DNA of 64,000 nucleotides from an uncultured Actinomycetes bacterium. GTDB lineage: Bacteria; Actinomycetota; UBA4738; HRBIN12. The stretch lies in the NCBI GenBank assembly GCA_963700855.1, contig CAVOYV010000001.1:853881-917880 (forward strand), read 5' to 3'. This document shows, piece by piece, positions 1 through 14,453 of the stretch; positions within the stretch are counted from its first letter, which is position 1; every line of letters starts with the position of its first letter. The translations under genes and the position numbers were made by a program. The notes under the pieces are model-generated. The model was not told where the DNA came from. It searched no databases and saw only the letters and a list, made by a program, of their open reading frames with translations.

Positions 1-1169
1 CAGGTCGTCGCCCTCGTCACGCGCGCGTCCACCTAGCGCGCGGATCCGGCGGTGATCGCCGCGAGCCGGTCGCTCTCCTTGACCCTCAGCTCCCCGGCGC
101 CCGAGAGCCTCGACTCGCCGGACGCGTGCGCGGCGAGCAGCGCGAGGATCGGCACCTCGTCGACCACGAGTGGCAGCTCGGCAGCCTCGACCCGGACGGG
201 AGCGAGGCCGTCCACGGCCGCCACGTGGAGCGATCCGACGGGCTCCCCCAGCTCCTCGCGGTCGACCGATCGCGTGACGCGGATACCCATCCTTCCCATC
301 ACGTCGAGGAAGCGCAGACGGGTGGGGTTGAGCCCCACGTCCCGGAGCGTGATCGACGACCCGGTGAGCGCCGCCGCCCCGATCAGGAACGCTGCCGAGG
401 AGGGGTCGCCCGGCACCCGTCCCGCGAAGCCCTCGTGCTGGAAGGGTCCCACGGTGATGCCGTCACCGACCGTCACGGCCGCGCCCAATGCGGCGAGCGC
501 CCGTTCCGTGTGGTCGCGCGTCGGAGCCGGCTCGATCACCGTCGTCGTCCCCTCGGCCGCCAGCCCCGCGAACAGGACCGCGCTCTTCACCTGGGCGGAC
601 GCCACCGGAGCCTCGAAGCGGATCCCGTGGAGGGGTCCGCCCTCGACCGTGATGGGCGCGTGGCCCTCCGTCGTTCGGATGTCGGCGCCCATCGCTCGCA
701 GCGGAGCCGCGACCCGCTCCATCGGACGGACCGACAGGCTCGGGTCGCCCGTGAGCACGCTTCGGAACGGGGCCGAGGCAAGAACGCCGGTCAGGAGTCG
801 CATCGACGTCCCCGAGTTCCCGCAGTCCAGGTCCGCGGCGGGCGAGACGAGGGCGGCGCGACCATCACCCTCGACCTCAAGGGCGGCGTCGGGCGCCGAT
901 CCAGCGGTACCGTTCCACGTGGAACGTCCACCCTCCAGCGCGGGCCGAGCCTCGGAAGCCCAGAGGTCGAGGCCAGGTCGAGCCCTCGGTGAGACGGCCG
1001 CAAGACACGATGCCGTCGACCGCACGTCGAGGGAGATCGGAACCCTCTCCAGACGGCTCGGGCCGTTCGCCGTGGCAGCCAGCAGCAGCCACCGGTGAGC
1101 GATCGACTTGTCGCCCGGCACCCGCAGCTCTCCCGAGAGGTGGGGCCGCGGGACGACGCGAACCTTCAT
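1..1169 (-). CDS. aroA: 3-phosphoshikimate 1-carboxyvinyltransferase (EPSP synthase); 3' partial, with an apparent 1-nt deletion near 45
   Basis: Motifs PGDKSIAHR, DCGNSGTSMRL, SAQVKSA, RDHTER and ELRVKESDRL. The ORF 33..1169 stops early. Restoring one G near 45 gives AGIRALGGRARDEGDDL, which continues off the window edge. Confidence 0.95.
911..926. other. parS-like 16-bp palindrome CGTTCCACGTGGAACG
   Basis: Perfect palindrome matching the GTTnCACGTGnAAC parS core. It lies inside aroA and encodes RSTWN. Confidence 0.65.
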
Positions 1170-3517: not shown

Positions 3518-4186
3518 TCAGCCCTCGTCGCCCGGCTCGTCGGCGGGGAGGGCGTCGGGCACGTCCGCGGGCGGCCCACCGGAGGGTGACTCGACCGTGT
3601 CAGCTTCGGCCTCGACAGCCTCGACGGCCAGGTCCGCGGCGTCCTCGTCGTGGGTATCAGGTCCCAGGAGCGGCGCGAGCGACGGCAGGGCGGCCAGCGA
3701 CGGCAACCCAAGCCGCTCGAGGAACTGCGGCGTGGTGGCGTACAGGAGGGGGCGACCGGGCGCCTCGTCCCGACCGGCCTCCTCGATCAATCCGCGATCG
3801 ACGAGCGCCCGCAGGACGCCGTCGGAGTTCACCCCACGGATCCCGCTCACCTGATGACGGGTCACCGGCTGCTTGTAGGCGACGATGGCCAGCGTCTCGA
3901 GCGCGGCCTTCGTCAGCCGAGCCTGCCGCGACGACAGGACGAACCGCTCGACGATCGCGGCTGCGTCCGGGTGCGTGTAGAGCCGCCACCCGCCGGCGAC
4001 GTTGCGCAACACCAATCCGGATGAGCGGTCTTCGAGGTCTCGCTGCAGCCGGTCGCACATCGCCTCCACCGTCCGGCGATCGAGCTCGAGGGACTGCGCG
4101 AGCACCGACGCGGTCAGCGGCTCGTCGGACACGAAGAACAACGCCTCGAGGGCGCGGGTGTCGTGAGTTTCCACCTGATCCGTCAC
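3518..4186 (-). CDS. scpB: SMC-Scp complex subunit ScpB
   Basis: ALEALFFVSDEPL, VAGGWRLYT, AALETLAIVAYKQPVTR, PGRPLLYATT. Confidence 0.95.
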   Translation of the reverse strand: MTDQVETHDTRALEALFFVSDEPLTASVLAQSLELDRRTVEAMCDRLQRDLEDRSSGLVLRNVAGGWRLYTHPDAAAIVERFVLSSRQARLTKAALETLAIVAYKQPVTRHQVSGIRGVNSDGVLRALVDRGLIEEAGRDEAPGRPLLYATTPQFLERLGLPSLAALPSLAPLLGPDTHDEDAADLAVEAVEAEADTVESPSGGPPADVPDALPADEPGDEG

Positions 4187-4217: not shown

Positions 4218-4973
4218 TCAGCCGTTCCATCCGACCTCGATCTCTCCGAAGGTCGTGCCCTGCTGAAGGTCCACCTTGCCTTCACGGTACAGCTCGAGCA
4301 ACGCGAGGAACCGCACGACCACCTCGATCCGTTCCTCGCAATCCGCCACGAGATCGCGGAACGTCGCTTGACCACCGGAGAATCCCTGGATCCGCGTCTC
4401 GACCGCCTGCATCGCCTCGGCCACCGTGAAGCGCACCGGCGTCACGTGGGACAGGTCGAGGGTGGGCGGCGGTCGGAGCATCCTGGCGGCGACCGCAGCC
4501 ACCTGCTCAGCCGTCACCCTCCCCATCGGATCGGGATAGAGGTGCGAGAACTCGGGTCCTGGACCGATGTCGCGGGCGAAGTACCCCGCCTCGTCCTCGA
4601 GGCGGCGAGCGATCTCGACCGCCACCTTCCGGAACGCCCTGAGCTCGAGGGACCGCGCGTACGCGAGGTCCGGTGAGCCCCCGAGCAGGTCCTCCTCATC
4701 GAGCTCCGCGTGTCTCGGGGTGAGGCGGGCGACCTTCAGCTCGAGCAGGACCGCGCAGATCGCGAGGAACCATGTCGCTTCCTCCAGATCCCATCGCTCG
4801 GGCTCTTTCGCGTAGGCGAGGTAGCCGTCGGTCACCGCAGCCAGCGGCACGTCGCAGACGTCGAGCTTCTGCTCGAGGATCAGATCGGCCAGGAGCCGGA
4901 AGGGTCCAGTGAACCCCGGGAGCTCGACGTCGAACCCGCCGGTCGCTCTGGCATCGGCGTTCGAAGCGCTCAT
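4218..4973 (-). CDS. scpA: segregation and condensation protein ScpA (kleisin)
   Basis: FTGPFRLLADLI, ATWFLAICAVLLELK, VVRFLALLELYREG. The ATG overlaps the trpS stop (ATGA). Confidence 0.93.
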   Translation of the reverse strand: MSASNADARATGGFDVELPGFTGPFRLLADLILEQKLDVCDVPLAAVTDGYLAYAKEPERWDLEEATWFLAICAVLLELKVARLTPRHAELDEEDLLGGSPDLAYARSLELRAFRKVAVEIARRLEDEAGYFARDIGPGPEFSHLYPDPMGRVTAEQVAAVAARMLRPPPTLDLSHVTPVRFTVAEAMQAVETRIQGFSGGQATFRDLVADCEERIEVVVRFLALLELYREGKVDLQQGTTFGEIEVGWNG

Positions 4974-5977
4974 CGGCCGAAGTGCATCGCGTCGCGGACC
5001 GCCTGGACCGTCGCCTGTGCGACCGGGCGCGCCTTGGCCGCGCCTGCGGACAGGACGGCGGCGGCGAGGCCCGGTGTCATCTCGAGCTCCGCTCGCCGCT
5101 CGCGGAACCCGGCGAACGTGTCCACGAGGTGGTCGCCGAGGAGCGTCTTGCAGTCGACGCATCCCAGCTCACCGGTGCGACACGTGGCGTCCACCCGCGC
5201 GACATCGTCCGGTGAGAAGGTCTGGTGCAGCGCGAAGATAGGACAGACCTCGGGGCGGCCGGGGTCCCCACGCCGGAGCTTCTGCGGGTCGGTGATGAAG
5301 CCGCGCACCGTTCGGCGGGTAGCCTCCTCGTCGTCGCGGATCCAGATCGCGTTGTCGAGCGACTTGGACATCTTGCGACCGTCCGAGCCCGGGATCAGCG
5401 GCGACTCGGACAGCAGCGGCTGAGGTTCGACGAGCACATCGCCGTAGAGCCGGTTGAAGCGGCGCACGATCTCGCGGCTGATCTCGAGGTGAGCGACCTG
5501 GTCCTCCCCCACCGGCACCCATTGCCCCGCAACGATCGCGATGTCGACGGTCTGGAGTACGGGGTAACCGAGCAGGCCGTAGTTCGCGATATCGCGCTCC
5601 GCCATGTCCCGGAGCCGCTCCTTGTACGAGGGCACGCGTTCGAGCCATCCCAGCGGGGTGATCATGCCCAGCAGCAGCGACATCTCGGCGACCTCGGGCA
5701 GGTCGGACTGCCGATAGATCACGGCCCGCTCAGGATCGAGCCCGGCGGCCAGCCAGTCGAGGACCAGGCCTTCGATGAAGCCGGGGAGCTCGTCGGTACG
5801 GTCGTAGTGGGTCGTGAGCATGTGCCAGTCGGCGATGAAGAAGAAGCACTCGTAGCCGGGGTCGGCCTGCAGCCGGAGCATGTTCCGGATGTTCCCGGCC
5901 CAGTGGCCCACGTGGAGGGGCCCGGTCGGCCGGTAGCCGGTGAGGACGCGCTGCGTCCGGGTCTCGGGAAGGGTCAC
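4970..5977 (-). CDS. trpS: tryptophan--tRNA ligase
   Basis: LTGYRPTGPLHVGH (HIGH), FIADWH, VPVGEDQ, KMSKS. GTG at 5977. Confidence 0.96.
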   Translation of the reverse strand: MTLPETRTQRVLTGYRPTGPLHVGHWAGNIRNMLRLQADPGYECFFFIADWHMLTTHYDRTDELPGFIEGLVLDWLAAGLDPERAVIYRQSDLPEVAEMSLLLGMITPLGWLERVPSYKERLRDMAERDIANYGLLGYPVLQTVDIAIVAGQWVPVGEDQVAHLEISREIVRRFNRLYGDVLVEPQPLLSESPLIPGSDGRKMSKSLDNAIWIRDDEEATRRTVRGFITDPQKLRRGDPGRPEVCPIFALHQTFSPDDVARVDATCRTGELGCVDCKTLLGDHLVDTFAGFRERRAELEMTPGLAAAVLSAGAAKARPVAQATVQAVRDAMHFGR

Positions 5978-6026: not shown

Positions 6027-6692
6027 TCAGACGGGGACGCATCCGGTACCCGAGAACACCCCGCAGAAGGCGTCGACGAGCGAGTACACGATCGCCTGGA
6101 TCGGGCCGGCCAGGAAGAACAGCGCGAGCAGCACGAACAGCGGGAGGTACTGATCCAGGTTGCGGTACGTCTCGCGAGCACGCGGGGGCAGCGCGAGCGC
6201 GACGAGGCGAGCGCCGTCCAGCCCCGGGATCGGCAGCAGGTGGAAGATCGCGAGCGTGAGGTTCGCGAACTCGAACACGAGGAGGAAGACGCCGATCTCC
6301 GAGAGGCCCGCGACACGGACGCCGAGTCCGCCCAAGGCGCCGAGCACGATGTTCGACACAGGCCCGGCGAACCCGACCAGCAAGCTGTCGCGCGGCTGGC
6401 GGTGCAGGTAGTTCGGATCGACCGGGGCCGGCTTCGCGTAGGCGACCGGGGGCGGAAGGAACGAGGAGGCGGCGGCCCACAGAAGCAGGACCAGGGCGGG
6501 CAGGAGTCCGCTTCCGAACGGCTCGAACCACGCCTTCGGGTTCCAGGTCAGTCGTCCCCACAATCGGGGCGTCGGGTCACCGAGCTTCGCCGCCACCGTC
6601 GCCCGGACGAACTCGCGCACGGTCATCCCGATCAGCAGGGAGATCGCCAGGTACGCCGTGAGCCGGAGACTCTCCCCGCTGAACCCGCCCAT
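6027..6692 (-). CDS. site-2 protease (M50) family membrane protein with a degenerate Zn-binding motif
   Basis: Hydrophobic. Contains LGDPTP...GRLTWNP, AGPVSN and FHLLPIPGLDG. The HExxH position reads REFVR. Confidence 0.85.
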   Translation of the reverse strand: MGGFSGESLRLTAYLAISLLIGMTVREFVRATVAAKLGDPTPRLWGRLTWNPKAWFEPFGSGLLPALVLLLWAAASSFLPPPVAYAKPAPVDPNYLHRQPRDSLLVGFAGPVSNIVLGALGGLGVRVAGLSEIGVFLLVFEFANLTLAIFHLLPIPGLDGARLVALALPPRARETYRNLDQYLPLFVLLALFFLAGPIQAIVYSLVDAFCGVFSGTGCVPV

Positions 6693-8015
6693 CAGACCTC
6701 CGGCCCCCACCATGCGTGGACGAGGTCCGGTGCGTCGACGCGTCCATCCGTCAGCTCGAGTGCCGACAGGACACGCCGCCCGGCTTCGACGGCGTCGTCC
6801 TCGGTCCGCGCGTGGATCTCGCCGATCGGCTCGCCCTCGCTCAGACGGTCTCCGATCTTGGGATGGATCACGACGCCGACGGCGGGATCGACCTGGTCGC
6901 CTTTGCGTATCCGGCCGGCCCCGAGGGCGCCGCTCGCGAGCCCGATCTCCGCTGCCTGCACGCGGGCGAGCGTACCCGACCGGTCGGCGAACAGCGGAGC
7001 CACGACCGGGGCATGAGGCAGGACGGCCGCGGGATCGTCGACGACGCGCGGATCTCCCCCCTGCGCCTCGATCATCGCCTGGAACCGCTCCAGAGCCGTG
7101 CCGTCGTTCAGGGCCTCCTCGGCCCGGTCACGGGCGACGTCGGGGGCAACGCCCTCGAGCGCCTCGAGCGCCTTCGCCGCGAACCAGCCCGCCAGCTCTC
7201 GAAGGCGGCCGCGCCGTACCCCGCGAAGGACCTCGATCGCCTCGAGCACGTCGAGGGCGTTGCCGACGGCGTCGCCCAGCGGCTGCGACATGTCGGTGAC
7301 GGCGACCCCGCAGGTGCGTTCGGCGCCGTCCGCGAGGGCCCGACACGCCTCGGCCAGCGTCCGAGCGTCGTCGGCGGTCTGCATGAACGCACCCGATCCG
7401 GCCTTCACGTCGAGCAGGATCAGATCGGTGGTGACCGCGAGCTTCTTCGACATCACGCTCGCAGCGATCAGGGGCACCGACGGGACGGTCGACGTCGCGT
7501 CACGTAGCGCGTACAGAGCGCCATCGGCAGGCACGAGCGTCGATGACTGAGCCGCCACCGCGCAGCCGACCTCGGCCACCTGCCGCCCGATCTCGTCCGG
7601 CTCGAGATCTCGTCCGGAGGCCGGGGATCGCTTCGAGCTTGTCGAGGGTCCCGCCGGTGTGGCCGAGGCCGCGACCTGACAGCTTCGCGACCCCGAGACC
7701 CAGGGCAGCCACGAGCGGGGCGAAGACCAAGGTCACCCCGTCGCCCACCCCACCGGTGGAGTGCTTGTCCACCGTGGGGCGCTCGAGACCGGGGAACGAG
7801 ACGGTGTCGCCCGACTCGATCATCGCGGTGGTCATCGCGAGGGTCTCCTGCGCATCGAACCCGTTCAGCAACGCGGCCATCAGGAACGCGGCGGCGGGAC
7901 CGTCGCCGATCTCGCCTCGGGCGTACGCCAGGACAAAGCGCTCGACCTCAAGTGGAGGTACCGACCTACCGTCACGCTTGGCGGCGATGACCGCCCGCGG
8001 ATCCCAGTGGGTCAT
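6692..8015 (-). CDS. pdp: pyrimidine-nucleoside/thymidine phosphorylase; apparent 1-nt insertion near 7610
   Basis: N part (ORF 7500..8021): DKHSTGGVGD, KLSGRGLGHTGGTLDKLE. C part (ORF 6692..7579): LYALRD, SVMSKK, DVKAGSGAFM. Removing one A joins them as RTDLEPDEIGRQVAEVG. Confidence 0.92.
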
Positions 8016-8040
8016 CCGCACCTTCTCCTCGACATCGAGC

Positions 8041-9240: not shown

Positions 9241-9591
9241 TCAGCCGGCCTTCCGTTTGCAGTCGATGCACAGCAGCGCCCACGGGATCGCCTCGAGCCG
9301 CTCGGTCCCGATCGGGTTGCCGCACCGCTCGCACGCGCCGTACGTTCCTGCGTCGATCTTCGCGATCGCCAGCTCGACATCGTGCAGGTTCGAACGGAGC
9401 GCCCTGACCACCGAGATCACGCGTGACCGCTCCTCGGTGCTGTGAGAGCGGTCGGAGAACCCCGCGTCTCCCTCGAAGGTCACCTCGTCGGTCTCCGGAT
9501 CTGCCCCGTGCTCTTCGATCTCGCGGCGGAGGTCGTCGCGCTGGCGCACGAGCTCGTCTCGCAGCGCGGCCAGCTTCGTCTCGTCCGTCAC
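9241..9591 (-). CDS. DksA/TraR family C4 zinc-finger protein
   Basis: N-terminal coiled coil followed by GTYGACERCGNPIGTERLEAIPWALLCIDC. Confidence 0.9.
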   Translation of the reverse strand: MTDETKLAALRDELVRQRDDLRREIEEHGADPETDEVTFEGDAGFSDRSHSTEERSRVISVVRALRSNLHDVELAIAKIDAGTYGACERCGNPIGTERLEAIPWALLCIDCKRKAG

Positions 9592-10550
9592 GGCTCCCTC
9601 GCTTTCCCCGCTCCACGGCGCGCCCGCGGATGCGACGTGTAGTACACCTCGCGCAGGTGCTCGCGCGTCACCAGCGTGTAGATCTGTGTCGTCGCGACGC
9701 TCGCGTGTCCCAGCAGCTCTTGGACCACCCGGACGTCCGCACCCCCGTCGAGCAGGTGCGTCGCGAACGAGTGACGAAGATCGTGCGGGCTCACCCGGCG
9801 ATCGATCCCGACACCACGAGCGTACCCCTCCAGGAGGCGTGCGACGCTCTGGCGGGTGAGCCGCCCGCCCCGGGTGTTGAGGAACAGTGCACCCCTCGTC
9901 CGCACCCCGGCGAGGTCGGGGCGTGCGCGGGTCAGGTACGCGGCGACCGCGTCGCGCGCGAAACGTCCCACCGGCACCTCACGCTCCTTGCCGCCCTTGC
10001 CCATGACGCGCACGGCACCTTCCTCCAGGTCCACGTCGTCCACGTCCAGCGACGTGAGCTCCGAGACGCGCAACCCGGCCCCGTACAGCAGCTCGAGGAC
10101 GGCTCGGTCACGCAGGCCGGTGATCGTCCCGTCGTCCGGTGCCGAGAGGATCCGGGTCACGTCGTCCACCGAGAGGGGGTGCGGGAGGGCGCGAGGAACC
10201 CGCGGGCGCACGACCCCGGCGGCGGGATCGTGGCTCACGACCCCCTCACGCGCGAGGAAGCGATGGAAGGACCGAACCGATGAAAGGGCGCGGGCGACCG
10301 AGGTGGCCGCGTACGGTGTCTCGTCCTCGCCGTGGGTCGAGGCCGACAGGGACGCGAGGAAGGCACGGACCGCTGCGTCGTCGACCTCGGCGGCGTCGGT
10401 CACACCGCGTCGCTCCATGAACGCGCAGTATCGGCGGAGATCGCGCCGGTACGCATCGAGCGTGTTGTCGGACAGGCCGCGTTCCACGCGCAGATGATCC
10501 AGGTACCGGCCCGTCTCGCGTGCGAGCGGGGTGGGCGGCGTGTCCGTCAC
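9588..10550 (-). CDS. xerD: site-specific tyrosine recombinase XerD
   Basis: ERGLSDNTLDAYRRDL; intact R-H-R-H-Y set (LYGAGLRVSEL, HDLRHSFATH, LLGHAS, TQIYT). Sits in the usual pyrG-nudF-xerD context. Confidence 0.93.
   Translation of the reverse strand: MTDTPPTPLARETGRYLDHLRVERGLSDNTLDAYRRDLRRYCAFMERRGVTDAAEVDDAAVRAFLASLSASTHGEDETPYAATSVARALSSVRSFHRFLAREGVVSHDPAAGVVRPRVPRALPHPLSVDDVTRILSAPDDGTITGLRDRAVLELLYGAGLRVSELTSLDVDDVDLEEGAVRVMGKGGKEREVPVGRFARDAVAAYLTRARPDLAGVRTRGALFLNTRGGRLTRQSVARLLEGYARGVGIDRRVSPHDLRHSFATHLLDGGADVRVVQELLGHASVATTQIYTLVTREHLREVYYTSHPRARRGAGKAREP

Positions 10551-11077: not shown

Positions 11078-14453
<3,376 letters not shown>

Follow-up and report, generated by a model that had tools for sequence, protein, structure and literature searches.

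The DNA examined here is a 64,000-nucleotide window of contig CAVOYV010000001.1 (hereafter C1) of the assembly GCA_963700855.1, a metagenome-assembled genome (MAG) of an uncultured Actinomycetota bacterium. The assembly consists of 8 contigs totaling 2,522,976 bp, has a G+C content of 70%, and is 82% complete. One end of the window carries a string of minus-strand genes that includes aroA, scpB, and scpA, and a short palindrome that resembles a ParB-binding (parS) sequence lies within aroA. The features relevant to this palindrome are as follows.

33..1169, minus strand: aroA (EPSP synthase, class II type) as assembled; the frame breaks near window 33-60, and the C-terminal roughly 70 residues continue in another frame beyond the window start.
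885..989, minus strand: coding region of the AroA insertion (about residues 61-95).
911..926: 16-bp perfect palindrome CGTTCCACGTGGAACG.
912..925: 14-bp parS core GTTCCACGTGGAAC.
3518..4186, minus strand: scpB (SMC-ScpAB subunit).
4218..5162, minus strand: scpA (kleisin of SMC-ScpAB).
9588..10550, minus strand: XerC/XerD-type tyrosine recombinase (Phage_integrase plus SAM_1 domains).

The genes belong to a conserved actinobacterial block, all on the minus strand, with the order nadK-recN-pyrG-nudix-xerD-...-trpS-scpA-scpB-rluB-aroH-tyrA-aroA-cmk-der. The identity of aroA is supported by a profile match to the EPSP_synthase family (PF00275, E 1.4e-79), by matches to solved AroA structures (E 4e-73), and by the presence of the GDKS, GNSGT, RPM, and KESDR motifs. 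scpB (SMC_ScpB, E 6e-54) and scpA (SMC_ScpA, E 5e-31) lie 2.6 and 3.3 kb from the palindrome on the same strand. The nearness to scpB, which had been pointed out in a first-pass annotation, reflects the conserved gene block, and a functional link to scpAB is not shown.

The first-pass annotation had described CGTTCCACGTGGAACG as a perfect 16-bp palindrome and the only one of its form in the window, and this was confirmed. Its 14-bp core is the only exact match to GTTNCACGTGNAAC in the window, and none of 100 dinucleotide-preserving shuffles gave a match. It is also the only exact match in the whole assembly, whereas about 0.05 chance matches per genome are expected from base composition and the reversed control pattern gave 0 hits in 41 genomes. 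The core matches the palindromic parS consensus TGTTNCACGTGNAACA at 14 of 14 positions. However, only the 14-15 bp core is conserved. The canonical outer T/A pair is replaced by C/G or G/G, and the outer C/G pair that makes a 16-bp palindrome occurs in this genome and a minority of others. This pair is C-G in 1 of 21 aligned sequences, and among 116 sites the first base was G in 102, C in 13, and A in 1.

The palindrome is read in the aroA frame as CGT TCC ACG TGG AAC G, which encodes R82 S83 T84 W85 N86 G87. These residues lie in an insertion. Query residues 40-94 align to residues 42-70 of the solved AroA 5bs5, giving 26 extra residues where the first-pass annotation had estimated 27, and the Pfam match is interrupted here. 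An AlphaFold2 model built on 43 sequences is confident overall (pLDDT 89.5, pTM 0.89) and predicts that the insertion forms a short extra helix at residues 64-72 followed by a loop of very low confidence at 73-95. The pLDDT is below 50 at residues 76-79 and 81-93, suggesting that the site-coding part is disordered. A blastn-short search of the genome with the 171-bp insert found no other copy, arguing against an inserted repeat or MITE.

Is the site conserved as DNA or as peptide? aroA was recovered from 38 of 41 related genomes. All 22 congener loci that cover this part of aroA carry GTTCCACGTGGAAC at the same place, although AroA is only 62-67% identical. In a codon alignment of 21 congeners, GGT was used in 20 of 20 sequences that have Gly at that position, and TCC, ACG, and AAC were used in 21 of 21 each. 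Other strictly conserved Gly, Ser, and Thr residues of the same gene use three or four codons, with an entropy of 1.2-1.9 bits. Of 129 conserved columns of four-fold or higher degeneracy, only 6 have a single codon, and 3 of those 6 are the adjacent parS codons. Furthermore, the 15-nt GTTCCACGTGGAACG is the only run of six or more invariant nucleotides in the whole gene. Codon identity at identical residues averages 0.46, indicating that synonymous sites are close to saturation. Thus, the palindrome is invariant at synonymous positions, as the parS reading predicts.

A search of the order with an aroA-specific pattern (GAGGGTNNNGGTTCCACGTGGAAC, up to 2 mismatches) found the motif in 115 of 294 genomes. 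These genomes fall in 15 of 78 genera, all in the window's own family. Of 116 hits counted, 112 have a perfect 14-mer, and the mismatches fall 86 times in the 7 flanking positions and 5 times in the 14 core positions, although the limit of 2 mismatches biases this count. Several genera of the same family gave no hit to the motif, and a few genomes (G104, G109, G143, and G150 in our numbering) carry decayed copies. The site is therefore dispensable in some lineages.

Outside the family, the loop persists but the peptide drifts (RLTWN, SFTWD, IHMKH) while the DNA stays parS-like. One family has CGT CTC ACG TGG AAC and CGT CAC ACG TGG AAC. Another has AGT/GGT TTC ACG TGG GAC, in which Ser changes to Phe exactly at the position where parS allows any base. 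A third family has a two-mismatch GATTCACATGAAAC that is shifted within the loop, and two others have nothing. The variants of the families that we designated f2/f3 are GTCTCACGTGGAAC and GTTTCACGTGGGAC. One 60%-identical relative reads STAN and has no site, while a 61%-identical relative keeps the perfect site. The first-pass annotation had proposed that the loop may be kept in order to carry a centromere site. This is only partly supported, because other families keep an insertion here with a one- or two-mismatch site or none, so the site constrains about five codons of a loop that exists anyway.

In most of the roughly 40 family genomes scanned, there is exactly one other perfect site; a few genomes have one, three, or five perfect sites. 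In congeners the other site reads GTTTCACGTGAAAC and lies 2.1-2.5 kb from the ParB N-terminal domain and 3.1-5.5 kb from dnaA. In one genome, G006, it is the full 16-mer TGTTTCACGTGAAACA overlapping the start codon of rsmG, in the usual jag-rsmG-parA-parB order. The same pattern of two perfect sites holds in 14 of 16 further genomes from 7 genera of the family. In the window's own MAG, the expected rsmG stretch falls at the break between the end of contig C5 and the start of contig C6, which starts with radical-SAM/glycosyltransferase and sulfotransferase genes that abut a truncated parA. The single perfect site in this MAG is therefore an assembly limitation. Allowing one mismatch revealed a third conserved site, TGTTTCACGTGAAGC (tatD site, TGTTTCACGTGAAGCT), in the intergenic region upstream of tatD. 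In this genome it reads TGTTTCACGTGAATCA at C3:168,907, and it is present in all nine congeners checked and in five other genera.

The proteins expected to act on a parS site are encoded in the genome. There is one ParB_N hit, at C6:5368, and the 298-aa protein is a canonical ParB that carries the CTP motif (GERRLRAA) and has Spo0J 1vz0 and 6sdk and ParB 6t1f as its best PDB matches (E down to 6e-54). Twelve of 13 relatives checked have one ParB, and one (G005) has two. A parA is present but split in this assembly. An SMC hinge hit was found at C8:146273 and also in G016, G074, and G223, and ScpA and ScpB are encoded in the window.

The location of the aroA site was determined from GC skew and from a dif-like sequence. 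On C1, the skew is positive from 0 to about 838 kb and negative afterwards, with the cumulative maximum at 835-840 kb. The end of C5, which carries dnaA, and the start of C6, which carries parB, show the opposite switch, which fixes the polarity: the switch on C1 is the terminus. Exactly there, in an intergenic gap outside the window at C1:838,522-838,547, lies the only dif-like sequence of the assembly, GATGCCCATAA-TGCACA-TTATGGAATGT. This 28-mer has the 11-6-11 arrangement and appears to resemble the CATAA-N6-TTATG form of dif, and it is the likely target of the XerC/XerD-type recombinase encoded in the window. It lies 16.3 kb from the aroA site. The same dif-like site lies on the same contig as the aroA site in seven relatives, at distances of 14.0 kb (G001), 14.4 kb (G004), 14.4 kb (G014), 17.9 kb (G021), 18.5 kb (G024), 18.3 kb (G074), and 14.5 kb (G223). 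The skew switch coincides with the dif-like site in G014 and G024 and lies within about 10 kb of it in G074 and G223.

Two genomes have nearly the whole chromosome in one contig. In G074, a congener, the aroA site is 1,484,055 bp of 3,133,461 bp (47.4%) from the origin site, and in G223, from another genus, it is 1,317,506 bp of 2,663,370 bp (49.5%). In both genomes, the tatD site lies 24.5% of the chromosome from the origin site on the same replichore as aroA. In other assemblies the partial distances are 528-767 kb, so mid-replichore is the safe description of this site. An origin-proximal position of the aroA site is rejected on these data, in agreement with one of the two possibilities raised in the first-pass annotation, a distal parS or a different chromosome layout, namely the first.

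The best explanation is that the 14-bp core inside aroA (aroA site, GGTTCCACGTGGAACG) is a genuine chromosomal parS site, that is, a nucleation site for the single canonical ParB of these bacteria, kept intact by selection acting on the DNA itself inside a floppy surface loop of an essential enzyme. We consider this reading likely, although binding by ParB is inferred, in the absence of binding data from these uncultured organisms, from identity with experimentally bound sites and from conservation. It would be the terminus-side member of a small dispersed set, comprising the perfect site at the rsmG start codon beside parAB and dnaA, the one-mismatch site upstream of tatD, and this perfect site 14-18.5 kb before dif on the same replichore. 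The GERRxRA motif and general ParB biology suggest that ParB closes as a CTP clamp and spreads over neighboring DNA. What the site does near the terminus is speculative. A second ParB focus there could load SMC-ScpAB or give ParA a handle on the last-replicated DNA, helping to fold or separate termini near the XerCD/dif site.

Other explanations of the conservation are less likely. The palindrome could be kept as an RNA (or single-stranded DNA) hairpin in the aroA message, for example a processing, stability, or translation-pausing signal in the long scpA...der transcript, with its identity to parS being coincidental. The 14-mer folds as a 5-6 bp hairpin in every sequence, the whole 131-nt insert of this genome folds into one long hairpin (z = -3.8 on the sense strand and -3.4 on the antisense strand), and some out-of-family variants, such as GUUUCACGUGGGAC in the sequences L028 and L031, keep pairing through G-U wobble. 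However, the extended hairpin is not conserved. RNAalifold on 21 congeners kept only the parS hairpin, and an explicit test of the outer 10-bp stem showed no covariation, with 84% of cells paired against 83.5% in shuffles. For the 14-mer itself, covariation cannot separate the two readings because nothing varies, but the four unpaired loop bases are as invariant as the stem. By our estimate, a random conserved 14-nt palindrome would match the parS consensus with a probability of about 1e-4, and the only other perfect match in most genomes scanned is the bona fide origin site. No Rfam family and no terminator-like feature was found here. An RNA role is thus improbable. Conservation at the protein level is more doubtful still. 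The peptide GSTWN is conserved in the family, and T-W-N/D persists in two other families, but GGT (20% of Gly codons), TCC (24% of Ser codons), and ACG (49% of Thr codons) are each fixed in 20-21 of 21 congeners, the residues sit in the low-confidence loop, and close relatives carry STAN, IHMKH, or no such segment and keep an otherwise normal AroA.

It also remains possible, though unlikely, that ParB, or another regulator that recognizes CACGTG, binds the site mainly to regulate transcription of the scpA-scpB-rluB-aroH-tyrA-aroA-cmk-der gene string, and that closeness to the terminus is incidental to where this conserved block lies. The site does lie inside a long co-directional gene string that includes scpAB, ParB of P. 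aeruginosa affects transcription through parS-like sites (PMC5961200), and the tatD site abuts what we read as a promoter-like TTGAGA...TATCGT. On the other hand, the aroA site is in the middle of a gene, downstream of scpAB, with no promoter-like sequence nearby, although synteny alone could also produce the observed constancy.

The chromosomal parS sites of B. subtilis Spo0J, T. thermophilus, and C. crescentus (consensus TGTTNCACGTGAAACA) share the 14-bp core, and here, too, a canonical ParB, ParA, and SMC-ScpAB are encoded. The location differs. Caulobacter tolerates a second parS only within about 500 kb of the native one (PMC5815017), and P. aeruginosa needs parS within about 650 kb of oriC (PMC5098823). 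In model bacteria a parS far from the origin is harmful or non-functional for segregation, so a terminus-side site is unexpected and its role may differ from classical partition. The core in aroA is identical to that of P. aeruginosa parS2/3 (TGTTCCACGTGGAACA), the highest-affinity sites of that species, which lie near oriC. P. aeruginosa also has a parS-like sequence opposite oriC, parS7, but its distal sites carry two mismatches and are weakly bound (PMC4368675), and only the four origin-proximal sites were seen bound in vivo (PMC5098823). Here, the terminus-side site is perfect and under strong purifying selection across 15 genera. Bacilli such as B. subtilis also have several parS sites spread over a large part of a replichore (Breier and Grossman 2007, as discussed in bioRxiv 10.1101/2020.12.04.411900). 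According to the latter work, scattering is restricted to a few lineages including Bacilli and is counterproductive for avoiding SMC collisions, whereas here it is seen in uncultured Actinomycetota with only three sites, one of which adjoins dif. MatP/matS of enterobacteria offers a functional analogy only, as a sequence-specific protein marks the terminus region near dif. The protein and motif are unrelated, and matS sites are many and spread over about 800 kb, whereas here there is one site. A literature search for parS in connection with aroA found nothing relevant.

On the parS reading, the aroA site is an unusually clean case of a protein-coding gene whose sequence is frozen by a DNA-binding site, which is useful as a benchmark for methods that detect overlapping functional constraints. 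A bolder possibility, which we hold only tentatively, is that this family runs a three-point centromere layout with one ParB, with sites at the origin, at the quarter position, and beside dif, all on a single replichore. The terminus-side site would load ParB-CTP clamps, and through them SMC-ScpAB or ParA, onto the last-replicated DNA, which would actively fold or pull apart sister termini next to the XerCD/dif site. On this view, the site is so important that five codons of an essential enzyme gene have been frozen for it across at least 15 genera, and such a use of ParABS contradicts the origin competence-zone rule derived from model bacteria. Work in Caulobacter, Pseudomonas, Corynebacterium, and Bacillus has led to the view that parS must lie close to oriC and that scattered loading sites are risky because SMC complexes loaded at different places collide. 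On the parS reading, this case is a natural counter-example that has been stable over evolution, as most genomes scanned in the family have exactly two perfect sites at opposite poles of the chromosome, plus a weaker one half-way along the same arm. If ParB binds these sites, the organisms offer a ready-made test of what a terminus-side centromere does, of how SMC traffic from opposite ends is reconciled, and of whether ParB can cooperate with XerCD/dif.

In this assembly, aroA is out of frame after residue about 374 (window 33-60 and upstream of the window start; C1:853,700-853,940, where C1 is the contig carrying the window). The sequence ...RLAAITAG is followed by a stop, while the conserved C-terminus (IRALGGRARDEGDDLVVAGGG...HRMAMSFAV...) continues in another frame. 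A one-base loss in GCCGGATCC would explain this. Further likely single-base indels of the assembly are found in the same window. A gene that resembles thymidine phosphorylase, judging from motifs read by eye, is split into two overlapping ORFs (6692-7579 and 7500-8021; 6692-8021 together), and recN also seems to be split (12816-13535 and 13554-14453; 12816-14453 together). The origin region of this MAG is broken as well (C5:349,000-355,318 and C6:1-5,300, on two other contigs of the assembly). C5 ends about 2 kb beyond dnaA, and C6 begins with radical-SAM/glycosyltransferase and sulfotransferase genes that abut a truncated, frame-split parA. The jag-rsmG stretch that carries the origin parS in relatives is missing.

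Outside the window, a dif-like XerCD site, GATGCCCATAA-TGCACA-TTATGGAATGT, is present at C1:838,522-838,547, which is 15.4 kb before the window start. It lies in an intergenic gap between an Lnt/glycosyltransferase fusion gene and a DUF11-repeat gene, and it sits exactly at the cumulative GC-skew maximum. The site is conserved in relatives at or within about 10 kb of their skew switch. A third conserved parS-like site lies upstream of tatD on another contig (C3:168,907-168,922; positions 4907-4922 of the locus extracted around it, L138), reading TGTTTCACGTGAATCA here and TGTTTCACGTGAAGC in relatives. It is directly followed by a conserved block, CCCCTGTTCACCC..TTGAGA..TATCGT, that looks like a promoter. 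In the two genomes that have nearly the whole chromosome in one contig, G074 (a congener) and G223 (from another genus), this site sits about a quarter of the chromosome from the origin site.

Within the window, pyrG (CTP synthase; 11078-12979) lies 10 kb from the parS site in the same gene string, upstream of xerD and scpAB. Its position is curious next to a loading site for a CTP-dependent clamp, although no link between the two is shown and this arrangement is the ordinary actinobacterial synteny.

In this genome only, the whole AroA insert is a long imperfect inverted repeat centered on the parS (window 855-985). A 10-bp arm, CCTCGACCTC, pairs with GAGGTCGAGG, and the RNA fold has an energy of -77 kcal/mol with a z of -3.8. 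However, the fold is not conserved in congeners. Beside the parS, rare codons are almost fixed in congeners (window 880-985; aroA codons 62-66 and 97-101). Examples are AAG GCT CGA CCT, in which CGA is found in 19 of 19 and CCT in 17 of 19, and CTT GAG GTT GAG GGT, in which GGT is found in 21 of 21. The motif (V)E-G also occurs twice (VEGG...LEVEG), as if the loop arose by a partial duplication. The near fixation of these rare codons suggests further, unexplained DNA- or RNA-level constraint in the insert.
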